NCBI GenBank assembly: GCA_965220355.1
Contig: OZ244820.1
Span: forward strand, 91,319 to 155,318
Direction of reading: 5' to 3'
DNA: 64,000 nucleotides
Source: Dehalococcoidia bacterium
GTDB taxonomy: Bacteria > Chloroflexota > Dehalococcoidia > Lucifugimonadales > Lucifugimonadaceae
Shown: positions 27,306 through 31,849 of the stretch, piece by piece
Layout: every line of letters begins with the position of its first letter
Position numbering within the stretch: position 1 is the stretch's first letter
Position numbers and translations under genes: made by a program
The notes under the pieces: model-generated
Database searches by the model: none
Seen by the model: the letters and a program-made list of their open reading frames with translations, nothing else
Told to the model about the DNA's origin: nothing

Positions 27306-27739
27306 GCACCGTTGTCGTCGCCCTGATACGCCACGGCGACGAGGTCCTGCTGGTCAAGCAACAAGGCGACGATGACGCCACACCGGGTTGGTCGGTGCCG
27401 GGCGGTGTAGTTGGAGACGGCGAACTGTTAACCGACGCTCTAAAACGCGAGGTGCGCGAAGAGACGGGCATTGAAGTGCTGACCGTCGGCCTGCTTGAGT
27501 ACATCGTCGATTTCGAGCACGACGGCGGCAACTCCATTGCCATGGCCTTCAACGTGATGGAATGGCGCGGCACACCGAAACCCAACGATCCCGATGGTCT
27601 AGTTACTGATTGCCTCTTCGTTCCGATGCCAGAAGCCATTCGGCTCGTCGAACACTTGCCGTATCGAATGATGCGGGAGCCGCTACTCGCGTATCTGAAC
27701 GGCGACGCGGTGCGTGGGATGCTGTGGGAATACGCGTAG
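27302..27739 (+). CDS. NUDIX hydrolase
   Basis: The Nudix box is GGVVGDGELLTDALKREVREETGI. An ATGA overlap with the upstream stop suggests translational coupling. Confidence 0.85.
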   Translation: MSTVVVALIRHGDEVLLVKQQGDDDATPGWSVPGGVVGDGELLTDALKREVREETGIEVLTVGLLEYIVDFEHDGGNSIAMAFNVMEWRGTPKPNDPDGLVTDCLFVPMPEAIRLVEHLPYRMMREPLLAYLNGDAVRGMLWEYA

Positions 27740-27798
27740 GCTACAAAGCCCATCGACGGCTAAATCTTCGCAAGGGATTTTAAAGAAGCAATGTGCGA

Positions 27799-27833
27799 CT
27801 AAATCTTCGTAATGGATCCTTGCGAAGATTTAG
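27799..27833. repeat. hairpin made of two inverted copies of the AAATCTTCG[CT]AA motif, 15 nt beyond the Fic stop
   Basis: The sequence ctaaatcttcgtaa-tggatcc-ttgcgaagatttag has a 14-bp stem with one T/C position. Confidence 0.6.
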
Positions 27834-27847
27834 CGACCAACTGCCGG

Positions 27848-29020
27848 TCACAACGGCTCGGTCCCCACGGCCAGCACGTCCATGTACTGGTCATACGCGA
27901 AAACCCGGTTGCGGGCGTTTCCGGTCACTTCTCGCACGATACCGAGTTCACCCAAAGCGTTCATGCCAGCAGCCGCGCCGGGGCGGGACAGGTTGGTTCG
28001 AGCCAAAACATCATTGATGCGCAGGTATGGCTGTTCCATCAAGATGTCGTGGACTTGAAGCGCCGTGAAACGGCGTCGGCCGGTCTGTTCGATGCGCGCA
28101 CGGTCATCGGCGAATAGGTGCGAAAGTTGGGTTGTAGATTCCACCACTGCATCGGCGGCGTCTTTTATCGCTTCGAAAAAGAAAGACAACCAGGCCTCCC
28201 AATCGCCCTCGAATCGAACATCGTTCAGCAGCTCGCCGTAGCGTCGCCGCTCGTCCTTCAGTCGCAGGCTTAGATAGAGCGTCGGGACCGATAGCAAACC
28301 CGATCTAAGCAGCATCAGCAACACGACTATGCGTCCGACGCGCCCGTTGCCGTCTCGGAACGGGTGAATAGTCTCGAACTGCGCGTGCGCTGCACCCGCG
28401 CGTACCAGCGGATGCGTCGCGTCCGCCCTTTGGCTGTCGCCGGCGATGTAACGCACGAGATCCGTCATGCAATCTTTGACCCGGTTGTGCGGCGGCGGAA
28501 CAAAAACCACGTGCCCCGTGGCCCTGGTGATGTAGTTCTGGCGGTCTCGGAATTCGCCCGGCTGCTTCCAGCTTCCACGCCCGATCTTCAACAAACGTCG
28601 GTGGATCTCTTGGATCAACGACGCGTCTATCTGTGCACCCTCGTCCAACCGCTCGGTTGCGTAACGCAACGCGTTCAAGTAGTTGATGGTCTCTTGTGTG
28701 TCGTCAATCGGCGCGTCGTCAGGACGCCGGCCCATCTCAAGCATCATAAGGTCGGGCAGGCTCGACTGAGTACCTTCGATCTGGGACGACAGCACTGCCT
28801 CTTTGCGAAGGTAGCTGTAGATCAGCATGTCCGCATTGGGCAAGTTTATCGATAGCGTGTTTAGGCCTCCCACCGCCGTCAAGGCATCCGCGAACTTGGC
28901 CAGCAACGGACCATCCATGACCACCGGGGGTTCTGGCGGCAACGGAACCGGCACGAAAGCGCTGAAGCGTTGACCGCGGTCTTTGACGGTCTCGTACTTT
29001 CCAGTGGGACCTCGACGCAT
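27848..29020 (-). CDS. Fic family protein with C-terminal winged-helix domain
   Basis: The Fic motif is HPFRDGNGRVGR. The inhibitory-type motif is SSQIEG. The C-terminal NLSRPGAAAGMNALGELGIVREVTG is wHTH-like. ATG at 29020 is preferred to the TTG at 29050. Confidence 0.85.
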   Translation of the reverse strand: MRRGPTGKYETVKDRGQRFSAFVPVPLPPEPPVVMDGPLLAKFADALTAVGGLNTLSINLPNADMLIYSYLRKEAVLSSQIEGTQSSLPDLMMLEMGRRPDDAPIDDTQETINYLNALRYATERLDEGAQIDASLIQEIHRRLLKIGRGSWKQPGEFRDRQNYITRATGHVVFVPPPHNRVKDCMTDLVRYIAGDSQRADATHPLVRAGAAHAQFETIHPFRDGNGRVGRIVVLLMLLRSGLLSVPTLYLSLRLKDERRRYGELLNDVRFEGDWEAWLSFFFEAIKDAADAVVESTTQLSHLFADDRARIEQTGRRRFTALQVHDILMEQPYLRINDVLARTNLSRPGAAAGMNALGELGIVREVTGNARNRVFAYDQYMDVLAVGTEPL

Positions 29021-29044
29021 AAGGAAATCAACCCCTATTAGAAC

Positions 29045-29073
29045 TCGCAAATCTTCGTAAAGGATATTTGCGA
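29045..29073. promoter_or_regulatory. palindrome tcgcaaat-N13-atttgcga containing a copy of the cassette motif, 25-50 nt upstream of the Fic ATG; candidate operator
   Basis: The palindrome is read directly from the sequence. The operator function is inferred from its position. Confidence 0.3.
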
Positions 29074-29146
29074 TGCAATCATCAGATATTTCTTATTATA
29101 ACAAATATTGCGAAGTGATAACAGCTGAACGCTTCTCTAAAATCCC

Positions 29147-29602
29147 TTACGAAGATTTAGATGTGCTCGATGGCAGCAATCTCAGTTCAACCAAACTGTG
29201 GAAGACGAATTCGATTTCCGGCTTGTGCATCAGCAACCGCAGCTTGTAGCTCTTCATTTCACCCGGCAACCATTCTTCGAAGGCGATCACCACAACCTTT
29301 TCAAGGTCTTTGCCCATCGCGTAACCGAATTCGACCGCGGCGTTAGTCGAACGGTCCGGATGCAAAACGTGAAATTCGTCGCTGGCGTCTAGTTTTCGCC
29401 AGCTCCGATCCCGAACAGCGATCAAGTCAGCTTCAGTTTGGGCTGGGCCCTTGGCAGCGCCGCGGTCGTATTCGATAGCCGGACAGAAGACGTCTTTGTC
29501 GGCAAGCTCATGCTCGATGTACCACTCGCACCACCTCACAATCAGCCGCCGATCTTCTTCGGAGACGCTGGTGATGGGGGTTGCTAGGTAGACGCGTTTC
29601 AT
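29147..29602 (-). CDS. nucleoside 2-deoxyribosyltransferase-like / DUF4406-like fold protein (tentative)
   Basis: The N-terminal VYLATPITS and C-terminal STNAAVEFGYAMGKDLEKVVVIA resemble the YLAGP...GTAxExGYAxxxGKPV pattern of the NDT-like clan. This was recognised by eye only. The last codons (SKSS*) are encoded by the right inverted repeat of the Fic cassette. Confidence 0.4.
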   Translation of the reverse strand: MKRVYLATPITSVSEEDRRLIVRWCEWYIEHELADKDVFCPAIEYDRGAAKGPAQTEADLIAVRDRSWRKLDASDEFHVLHPDRSTNAAVEFGYAMGKDLEKVVVIAFEEWLPGEMKSYKLRLLMHKPEIEFVFHSLVELRLLPSSTSKSS

Positions 29603-29696
29603 CTCACTCTCCCTTCAGTCGGGCGCGCTTCGTCAAATGACGGATTACAGGGGAAGAGATATCGAAGATACTGCGCGAATCGAAACCTCCGGACCC

Positions 29697-30497
29697 TCAA
29701 TCCTCGTCTGGTACGACCAATTGATAGTGCTTCTCTTCGACCACGGCGATGTCGTCGATATCGCACGTTTGCAGTTCAATGAGAGCGATCACTGAATCCG
29801 ATATCGCTTGCACTGCGATACACCGTACTGGCAACCCGGCGAGTTTCGATCGACACACCAATGCGTTTTGCCAAATTTGGACGACGTTAAGGGAATCACT
29901 CTCGCTTTTGGCTTCAACAGGGATCGCAAAGTGCTGCCCATGTTTGTCGATTCCAACGTACAGTTCGTCGGTCTCTACTTGTGTCGATTCGTTGCGTTGC
30001 CGTAGCGGGTTCCAGATTGGAACCGACGTTCTGAGATGGTTCTGCAGCGAGTAACAAGCCAATCCCGTGAAAATGTCGATCAAGCGGTTGTAACGGATGG
30101 TGGCCAATAGCGCTTGTTCGTCGCTCAGGGCATACAACGATATGGCTCCGGGAGTTGCATCCGGGATGTCGGTGCGCGCCAACAGGGCGTTCGGTTTGAT
30201 CTCGCTGAATCTGACCTGACGGAACTCGTACACGGAACGACCAGCGGGGAGGATCGCCCATTGTCTGTCTGGCGCAGCCGTTGCAACGATAGATTCAGGC
30301 ATGGCCATTCGATACCTAATCGAGTAGACCAGATCGCCCAGGTTCTTGGGGACATCGATCCCGAGCCTTCGTGCCATCTCCTCGATTTCGCGACGCTCGA
30401 ATGGTACCGATGTTTCGCCAGTTCGATAGTGAGAGTTGAAAATCTCCTCGATGATGCGCGTGTACGCGTTTCCACTTGCCGAACTGCCGGTGGTCAT
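29697..30497 (-). CDS. putative type II restriction endonuclease (PD-(D/E)xK)
   Basis: ETDELYVGIDKHGQHFAIPVEAKSES fits D...ExK. An ATGA overlap with the methyltransferase stop arises if the start is ATG at 30497 (the ORF track gives 30506). Confidence 0.5.
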   Translation of the reverse strand: MTTGSSASGNAYTRIIEEIFNSHYRTGETSVPFERREIEEMARRLGIDVPKNLGDLVYSIRYRMAMPESIVATAAPDRQWAILPAGRSVYEFRQVRFSEIKPNALLARTDIPDATPGAISLYALSDEQALLATIRYNRLIDIFTGLACYSLQNHLRTSVPIWNPLRQRNESTQVETDELYVGIDKHGQHFAIPVEAKSESDSLNVVQIWQNALVCRSKLAGLPVRCIAVQAISDSVIALIELQTCDIDDIAVVEEKHYQLVVPDED

Positions 30498-31849
30498 CCC
30501 GGCCACCTCAGGAGAAGCACTTCCTCGCGCAATTGTTTTCCTGTTGCGGTTGCGAGACGCGTTCGAAATAGGTCGATACCTTCAACGGTGTATCCGATTT
30601 CTTCGGCTATCTCGGCCAAAAGTTGTCCGGTGCGGATCATGATCCTGAAAAATGACGCTTGGTCGCCGACCACATATGCCAGTTGAGCTCCCGGTTTCAA
30701 CACTTTGGACAGGCTGCTCAAGTGCTGCGCCATTCCTCCGAAATACAATCTCACCACGCGCGAATATTGCTTTTCAAAACCTGATGTCTTGCCCAAATCG
30801 ATGCGCCTAGCTTCGATCCGATCCGCTAGTTGGTGCACGGGAGAATCCGCCGGAAGCCATTCGTCGTCGGTGTCAGCTTTATACACAGTCCTCGAATTCG
30901 AACGCAGGAGATGCTGCTTGGTCGCTCGGAGATCCATTCGATCCTCGAAGAACCCTAGTATCACCGACTCGATACGGACGGTCCGCGTGTAGTCCTTCTC
31001 ATTTGGATATGGCGGCGAAGTTATGACCGCGTCGACAGAATTCGGAGCGATAATTTCGTCGATGCCGCGTGAGTCGCCGACGTGTACGCTGGCCAGCGTT
31101 CCGCTGTCTTGTAGATCGTCCAAGTCCGACGCGATTTTTCCAACCCGCTCGAGCCAAGCAGACACCACCGCAGCATCGTGCTTGATCTTGCCTACGCCTA
31201 CTTCTGGCCCAAACTTCAAGTTTGAGATTTCACCGACCAATGCCGATGCCAACGCCAACATCTCGTGATCTGAATATTCATCGGACCACCGTCGTTGCAA
31301 TTCATCAACCAATACCAAGACCTTGTGGAGTGGTAAGGGGCTGATGGCATCTTTGAAGATCAGTTTGGCTGCGGCAGGCGGCAATTTCCGCAATTTGTCG
31401 GAGTCTATGCCGTCGTTGATCGGATCATCTGAAATGCCGTCGGCGAGTAACTGTCGAATCACGCGCTCGGACGCGCGATCTGCTCTTGCCTTCAAACCTT
31501 TCGAATCGACTGACCAGTTTACCTTGGTGTTGGCAACATAAGCCGAACTCGGTAACGCTTCAACACCGATGCTGGGAATCCCGAGTTTTTTGCACTCAAC
31601 CAAAGTCGTACCGGTCCCACAGAAAGGATCAAGAACAACCTGCTGGGCTGATACATCAAATCGAGCTAAGTAATCGCGCACCAGATGGGGTGGGAACGAC
31701 AACACGAAGCGGTACCAGTCGTGAGCCGCAGCGTCGACCGGCAGCAATGCATTCATACGACCGTTGGCAATCGATTGTGAAACTTGACCGCCAGAAATAG
31801 GGAGCAACGGCTGCCGCGCGCTGGTTGTAGTTGGTGATGGCATGCGCAT
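30494..31849 (-). CDS. N6-adenine/N4-cytosine DNA methyltransferase
   Basis: Motif I (VLDPFCGTGTTLVE) precedes motif IV (ITSPPYPNEKDY). Confidence 0.8.
   Translation of the reverse strand: MRMPSPTTTSARQPLLPISGGQVSQSIANGRMNALLPVDAAAHDWYRFVLSFPPHLVRDYLARFDVSAQQVVLDPFCGTGTTLVECKKLGIPSIGVEALPSSAYVANTKVNWSVDSKGLKARADRASERVIRQLLADGISDDPINDGIDSDKLRKLPPAAAKLIFKDAISPLPLHKVLVLVDELQRRWSDEYSDHEMLALASALVGEISNLKFGPEVGVGKIKHDAAVVSAWLERVGKIASDLDDLQDSGTLASVHVGDSRGIDEIIAPNSVDAVITSPPYPNEKDYTRTVRIESVILGFFEDRMDLRATKQHLLRSNSRTVYKADTDDEWLPADSPVHQLADRIEARRIDLGKTSGFEKQYSRVVRLYFGGMAQHLSSLSKVLKPGAQLAYVVGDQASFFRIMIRTGQLLAEIAEEIGYTVEGIDLFRTRLATATGKQLREEVLLLRWPG

Follow-up and report, generated by a model that had tools for sequence, protein, structure and literature searches.

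Candidate operator sites on both sides of a SoFic-type Fic gene in a Dehalococcoidia bacterium

The Fic gene and the sites around it

The window analysed here is a 64,000-nucleotide (nt) stretch of a Dehalococcoidia bacterium genome (contig OZ244820.1, assembly GCA_965220355.1), and within it lies a Fic gene on the minus strand (27848..29020) with copies of a short motif, candidate operator sites, both in front of it and behind it. The gene encodes 390 amino acids (aa) when read from the ATG at 29018-29020, as in 16 orthologue clusters, and not from a TTG at 29050. Its identification draws on Pfam, PADLOC, matches to structure chains, and orthologues. Pfam recovers a Fic domain (4.7e-21) along with Fic_N, the translation contains the motif HPFRDGNGRVGR, and the pattern of a class II inhibitory helix, (S/T)xxxE(G/N), is found as SSQIEG inside the Fic_N region. 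The PADLOC model for SoFic matches at 3e-106, covering 29-393. Chains of SoFic (3EQX and others), of the EcSofic-like protein, 9vjc, and 7cb8 align over nearly the full length, including the C-terminal winged helix, and the alignments to the SoFic and 9vjc chains reach residue 371-383 of 390. The Pfam SoFic-like_C match is weak (6e-4, below gathering), and NCBIfam NF046030, the equivalog model for SoFic of Shewanella oneidensis, returns a score of 163.9 against a cut-off of 550. Judged by sequence, the protein is a member of the SoFic family and not the equivalog, a predicted SoFic-type class II AMP-transferase with a winged helix-turn-helix (wHTH) and of the anti-phage toxin type. The E. coli Sofic gene is reported to have an AS1-like gene for a 47-aa antitoxin downstream (PMC12249575), whereas downstream of this Fic gene there is no open reading frame (ORF) for an AS1-like small antitoxin, and no room for one to fit.

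An earlier note on this DNA had drawn attention to near-identical inverted ends around the gene, to five copies of a core motif, to a 14-base-pair (bp) hairpin past the Fic stop, and to a palindrome upstream of the Fic ATG, and all of these are present. The left end at 27760-27789 (CTAAATCTTCGCAAGGGATTTTAAAGAAGC) matches the reverse complement of 29131-29160 at 28 of 30 positions (93% self-match). The core AAATCTTCGYAA occurs exactly at 27762 (+), 27801 (+), 27831 (-), 29049 (+), and 29158 (-). Allowing up to one mismatch gives six matches in the window where 0.52 are expected, a number that none of 100 shuffles reached. Five copies of the 14-mer CTAAATCTTCGYAA fall within 1.4 kb, and there is no exact copy elsewhere in the genome, which is a single contig of 2,818,147 bases; looser matches elsewhere, with one or two mismatches, are as numerous as those of a control pattern.

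These copies resolve into half-sites with a regular geometry. The core half-site, TTGCGAAG on the plus strand, reads CTTCGCAA on the coding strand of Fic and comes in two flavours, one ending ...GATTT (AAATCTTCGCAA on the coding strand) and the other ...GCGAT (ATCGCTTCGCAA on the coding strand). Two inverted half-sites make up a palindromic unit of a 12-nt arm, 7 nt, and a second 12-nt arm, so spaced that the arm centres are 19 bp, or about 65 Å, apart. Along the coding strand, the order in this genome is a promoter-distal unit (29160-29128), a lone half-site (29119-29108), a predicted extended -10 (TGTTATAAT, 29103-29095), a unit in the predicted 5' leader (29079-29049), a Shine-Dalgarno sequence, the ATG at 29020, the stop at 27848, and then two further units (27833-27799 and 27792-27760).

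The sites in front of the gene interleave with a promoter that is predicted from its conservation among orthologues. In seven aligned orthologous upstream regions (alignment A2), TATAA is invariant at the predicted -10 (29095..29103, minus strand) and TGnTATAAT is found in 6/7; among the variants, genome G050 has TG directly before TATAAT, and locus L178 has TGCTATAAA. The lone half-site (29108..29119; TTGCGAAGTGAT on the plus strand, ATCACTTCGCAA on the coding strand) abuts the upstream side of the -10, in the -35/spacer region, and CTTCG is conserved at its position in the same alignment. The earlier note had recognised this partial copy and put it at 29103-29115, a position that we correct to 29108-29119. 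The leader unit (29049..29079; on the plus strand AAATCTTCGTAA, AGGATAT, TTGCGATGCAAT) would lie at about +10 to +40 of a predicted transcription start near 29088, 29-61 nt upstream of the ATG, and is likewise conserved in all seven regions, as is a GGAGG preceding the ATG, while the spacers between sites vary in sequence. An inverted-repeat arrangement overlapping the gene's own predicted promoter, with a half-site at TGnTATAAT plus a palindromic unit, is thus found across seven orthologues.

Behind the gene, two units form a module. The inner, symmetric unit (27799..27833; CTAAATCTTCGTAA, 7 nt, TTGCGAAGATTTAG) starts 14 nt past the Fic stop. It is separated by 6 nt (27793-27798) from the outer unit (27760..27792; on the plus strand AAATCTTCGCAA, 7 nt, TAAAGAAGCAAT), which the earlier note had described as a left terminal inverted repeat. 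The module runs for 75 nt without an indel in 11 sequences (alignment A4), the outer unit included, between stretches of DNA that cannot be aligned on either side. Spacing is also fixed across species, at 7 nt within units and 39 nt from unit to unit.

The promoter-distal unit (29128..29160), formerly the right terminal inverted repeat, stands in inverted orientation, and its arm at 29145-29160 encodes the last codons and the stop of a neighbouring 151-aa gene, whose ORF closes ...TSKSS* with the TAA inside the motif copy, as the note had said. In G041, G050, L178, and L179, a symmetric unit occupies the distal upstream position, so that the two sides of the gene are direct repeats that differ by a roughly 37-nt insert bearing the promoter. 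Because the flanking modules are direct in these other species, the inverted ends seen in the window are a lineage-specific detail.

A single locus with probable repeated loss of Fic

Among the 36 species-level genomes of the genus that made up our comparative set, an orthologous Fic (63-87% aa identity) is found in 6/36: G000 (the genome of the window), G047, G007, G050, G041, and G020. It always stands beside an enolase-superfamily gene, and its other neighbour is the 151-aa gene except in G020. Five more orthologue loci, representing three further clusters on metagenome and NCBI assembly contigs, have the identical position, and the genes beyond the 151-aa gene vary among them (restriction-modification (R-M), SIR2_2, or coenzyme A (CoA)-transferase). 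Genome-wide and genus-wide pattern and BLAST searches found neither motif nor module outside this locus in G000 or its 35 congeners. The motif was likewise beside none of 80 distant Fic homologue loci from other phyla, and its pattern had no match in JGI metagenome and IMG/VR contigs in exact-match scans, which are insensitive.

The nearest relative, G005, lacks Fic and preserves the outcome of its removal to the nucleotide. The G005 and G000 flanks are 93-96% identical; G005 tracks G000 to ...CCTTGCGAAGATTTAG at 27833 and resumes after 29160, with exactly 1327 bp (27834..29160) gone. This segment is defined by a sequence match, in which query 1-834 meets query 2146 with a 16-nt overlap, and by a three-way alignment (A3), and the crossover falls inside the shared CGAAGATTTAG. 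The G005 allele is therefore the left junction of G000 joined to its right junction, and the partners of the 16-nt direct repeat at which the deletion occurred are the right arm of the inner downstream unit (27818-27833) and the arm of the distal unit at 29145-29160. We attribute this precise Fic-less allele to recombination between the flanking units.

Other Fic-less relatives carry similar remains. In G018 and G019, as in G005, the 75-nt module, with its outer unit retained, stands alone and immediately adjoins the 151-aa gene at its 3' end; G013 and G010 have part of such a solo module, and G023 a degenerate one. Direct repeats of 16 to about 75 nt are common to the units on either side of Fic, so that recombination can remove the gene cleanly, and such clean loss, with one module left behind, appears to have taken place in at least three clades. 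The presence of sites on both sides thus explains the ease with which relatives lose Fic, and the single set of sites that stays behind as a scar. The outcome resembles the formation of a solo long terminal repeat, in that a gene is lost through recombination between flanking repeats and one copy stays; it differs in that the repeats here are putative regulatory sites of 16 to about 75 nt and not element termini, and nothing suggests transposition.

In the flank-gene tree, each Fic-positive genome is grouped with a Fic-negative sister (bootstrap 98-100), Fic and flank distances are correlated across the six taxa (r = 0.90), and the six-taxon Fic and flank trees both recover G047 with G007 (bootstrap 100 and 91). 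The trees disagree elsewhere, with G050+G041 reaching only 53 in the flank tree and G020 placed differently. Old residence of Fic with repeated loss is the simplest account, and re-acquisition by homologous exchange between species may be an alternative to it. Under the simplest account, Fic would be non-mobile and would long have occupied a variable slot that has the enolase-family gene on one side and the 151-aa gene on the other.

One genome has a more complex arrangement. At locus L048 of G007 (G007:C88, about 2375-2450 of the oriented locus), a module is followed by 75 nt left over from the 3' end of another Fic allele, then by a second module and an intact Fic. The tandem module with its remnant looks like the pattern expected from unequal crossing-over between modules, and the remnant itself looks like a trace of either unequal crossing-over or allele replacement.

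Proposed self-regulation and its alternatives

We favour the explanation that the motif copies are operator half-sites of a self-regulated SoFic-type Fic gene, and we consider this probable. The earlier note had offered two readings, an operator set and a non-autonomous mobile cassette akin to a miniature inverted-repeat transposable element (MITE); the layout of the sites around a conserved promoter and published precedent favour the former, while the latter did not hold up. A Fic dimer would bind the palindromic units through the C-terminal winged helix, and the bound protein would repress its own promoter, keeping a toxic AMP-transferase low. What the note had taken for 30-bp terminal inverted repeats would then be one unit from each side, in opposite orientation.

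We infer the role of Fic as binder and self-repressor from two related proteins, and the note's statement that no such arrangement was known for Fic genes is mistaken as far as operators are concerned. CccR of Yersinia pseudotuberculosis is a class II Fic protein that carries an HTH at its C-terminus. As a dimer, it represses the gene that encodes it via inverted repeats, which are two 10-bp inverted boxes at -35/-10, 26 bp apart; its DNA-binding helices are about 70 Å apart (PMC9755527). Like the predicted protein of the window, CccR combines a class II inhibitory helix, a Fic core, and a C-terminal DNA-binding domain, and so unites toxin and regulator in one protein. However, CccR has one pair of boxes, whereas this locus combines several 12-7-12 units, two of them behind the gene, with a lone half-site. 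CccR is moreover an effector secreted by a type VI secretion system, a context that is lacking here, and 7cb8, presumed to be the CccR chain, is distant from this Fic (E 5e-27). The SoFic dimer binds specifically to the AT-rich 100 bp that immediately precede its own start codon (bioRxiv 10.64898/2026.07.09.737422). SoFic of S. oneidensis (mloA; PDB 3EQX) shares with this Fic the order of N-terminal helix, Fic domain, and wHTH, and the SoFic anti-phage system and this gene both have a defence neighbourhood, here an adjoining type II R-M pair. The solved SoFic chains are again distant (E about 1e-32), and since no operator sequence has been defined for SoFic, the half-sites cannot be compared with it.

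Three other explanations deserve consideration, and the first shares the premise that a protein reads these sites. The units could be operators for another DNA-binding protein, either a host regulator or a paralogous Fic, and not for the protein's own winged helix. Solo modules are well conserved in G019 and G018, both of which lack Fic, and genomes of the genus carry 2-5 other Fic paralogues each, both of which would fit such a regulator. Yet the motif is found only beside this Fic orthologue group or as its leftover, a paralogue group has a different recognition helix together with a palindrome of its own, and self-binding is published for CccR and SoFic, so we regard another regulator as unlikely. 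A role in RNA, with the downstream hairpins terminating transcription in both directions or stabilising transcripts where the enolase/NUDIX genes converge on Fic, and a leader hairpin controlling translation, is suggested by the position of the module between convergent genes, 14 nt after the stop, and by its predicted fold (-36 to -37 kcal/mol, z about -5, on both strands). Such folds are expected because palindromes themselves fold, as any inverted repeat does, and for the predicted leader by itself the fold is no stronger than in shuffles (z = -0.57). No intrinsic terminator is called at the module, no T-run follows its stems, and the repeats have no Rfam match. In the two downstream units, which comprise 22 pairs, 77.7% of the cells are paired versus 78.2% after column shuffling; the covariation score falls short of the shuffle mean, most variation breaks pairs, and conservation is far higher in one arm than in the other. 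This lack of covariation, together with a lone half-site at the -10, where a role in RNA would make no sense, favours DNA sites read by a protein over an RNA helix. We reject a conserved RNA helix for want of covariation and consider the wider RNA explanation improbable.

The third explanation is mobility, whether as a MITE-like element or as a cassette for a site-specific recombinase with 12-7-12 core sites of the loxP/FRT/dif kind. The 28/30 inverted ends, the geometry of two arms around 7 nt and the presence of a third copy close by, the precise occupied/empty polymorphism ending at TTTAG, the tandem module of G007 with its remnant of another Fic allele, the hotspot character of the locus with its varied cargo, and a paralogue that appears with its own repeats in at least three contexts could all be expected of mobile DNA. 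Against this, the motif is confined to a single locus in this genome and 35 congeners and is absent from the metagenome and viral contigs scanned, and about 12 independent orthologue contexts all lie at one locus between the same two genes. A search of the genome and its relatives with the repeat gives one locus and no second copy, and the left 'terminal repeat', indeed the whole left module, stays in the 'empty' allele of G005. We find no target duplication at either 27760 or 29160; the end units of G041 and G050 run in the same direction, as direct repeats; the sites interleave with the promoter; and Fic divergence tracks flank divergence. MITEs and pdif/Xer modules share with this locus short inverted repeats around a single gene and an arm-spacer-arm geometry; they differ in that the repeats here are single-copy and single-locus, have neither target duplication nor partner recombinase, and do not conserve the orientation of the end units. 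A site-specific cassette of integron attC or Xer/dif type was discarded on the same grounds, there being a single context and no integrase within about 8 kb, nor was an attC core seen by eye. We therefore consider mobility very improbable.

Several points weigh against self-regulation. It is by analogy that Fic is taken as the binder, and the boxes of CccR are separated by 26 bp where the arms here are separated by 7. Both the -10 and the transcription start are predicted from sequence, and a generic sigma-70 scan did not call the Fic promoter, which we ascribe to the promoter being without a -35. In G020, which has the most divergent orthologue (63%), the motif copies are all degenerate and the downstream module is missing. 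The solo module of the Fic-less G019 is nearer to the consensus than the module of its Fic-positive sister G050, which is odd if the sites serve the local Fic only. Finally, at distant homologue loci, an exact 11-mer or longer common to the upstream and downstream regions was found in 3/53, against 0/53 in the control, by a test that is crude and insensitive. By that crude test, bracketing of the gene would seem to be a trait of some lineages and not a family-wide rule.

Differences between Fic paralogues bear on self-regulation as well. Recognition helix and wing are conserved within the Fic orthologue group and differ consistently in a 47%-identical paralogue group (helix LSRPGAxAG vs LSFPAASSA, wing TGNARNR vs TGRSAGR), and in the latter a different palindrome is conserved, AATTAATATTT-N8-AAATGTTAATT, which precedes the ATG by about 35 nt. 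Different recognition helices with different palindromes are what would be expected if each Fic reads its own sites. The paralogue, also SoFic-type, lies outside the window (G000:C1:351296-352453; L152 about 740-2110), has orthologues at L154 and L158-L171, and is found in three or more genomic contexts across the genus. After its stop, there is a hairpin, GATTCAAAAAAGTTGAATC, with AT-rich units that are repeated in tandem two to three times in some species.

If Fic does regulate itself, the two units behind the gene would be further binding sites, with possible roles in looping, in blocking transcription that converges from the enolase/NUDIX side, or in holding the dimer on the DNA. We propose only tentatively, and consider it rather doubtful, that they are a working second operator, with a Fic dimer bracketing its own gene as a loop, as a roadblock against convergent transcription, or as a DNA tether. 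In the tether variant, DNA would hold the enzyme in a harmless dimeric state until infection disturbs binding. Were a second operator real, the two paralogous SoFic lineages of the genus would each have evolved their own upstream and downstream sets of sites.

The arrangement of a Fic gene with operators that its own product would bind is already known in kind, since CccR and SoFic have been published as binding their own promoters; the conserved two-unit module behind the gene is the mildly new element. What the locus offers is a comparative definition of a putative SoFic-type operator grammar, in terms of half-site, 7-nt spacer, and position relative to the extended -10. As SoFic itself is without a published operator sequence, the sites described here are suited to binding tests. 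Regulatory repeats on both sides of a costly gene would also ease its loss and leave 'solo operator' scars, and these scars, like the 30-bp inverted ends, can be mistaken for the termini of a mobile element. A single defence gene may therefore look like a cassette without being mobile.

The 151-aa gene and the variable slot

The gene whose 3' end meets the distal unit (29147..29602, minus strand) encodes a genus-restricted 151-aa protein with a predicted fold like that of nucleoside 2-deoxyribosyltransferase (NDT), MilB, or DNPH1. It has no Pfam, NCBIfam, or PADLOC match, and its 70 homologues, all at least 62% identical, are confined to the genus; the structural model has a predicted local distance difference test score (pLDDT) of 86 and a Foldseek template-modelling (TM) score of about 0.6 to NDT/MilB/DNPH1-like folds. 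With an NDT/MilB-like enzyme fold and no HTH, the protein is unlikely to be a regulator, and the gene is a neighbour that lies outside the regulatory system. Its tail is variable (147-161 aa), and the adjoining motif often encodes it, with KSS or KSSQGxxxx as the ending. The earlier impression that a cassette had landed in the 3' end of this gene was half right, in that the C-terminal tail does come from whichever motif copy abuts the gene. The 151-aa gene persists in at least 14 examined genomes with no motif copy beside it.

Upstream of Fic and on the same strand lie genes for a type II methyltransferase and a type II restriction enzyme, followed by the 151-aa gene. The first two (29697-31849, minus strand) make up a type II R-M pair, in which a 269-aa protein with no Pfam match but a PADLOC REase_II match at 1.6e-93 is encoded in overlap with a 451-aa N6/N4 methyltransferase. 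There is no integrase or transposase within about 8 kb of the locus. A doubled form of the locus is seen in G045, where the GTP cyclohydrolase/enolase/151-aa arrangement is present twice (L066 on C3 and L067 on C1), at about 82-84% identity to the window; this could be a duplication or a mixed bin, with listed contamination at 3%. More broadly, the interval between the enolase-superfamily and CoA-transferase genes (27306-31849; in relatives L037-L071 and L174-L179) is a variable slot, whose contents differ by species and include NUDIX, Fic, the 151-aa gene, the type II R-M pair, SIR2_2, membrane proteins, a repeat lipoprotein of 585-665 aa, and a 1237-aa helicase with a DUF559-like end.

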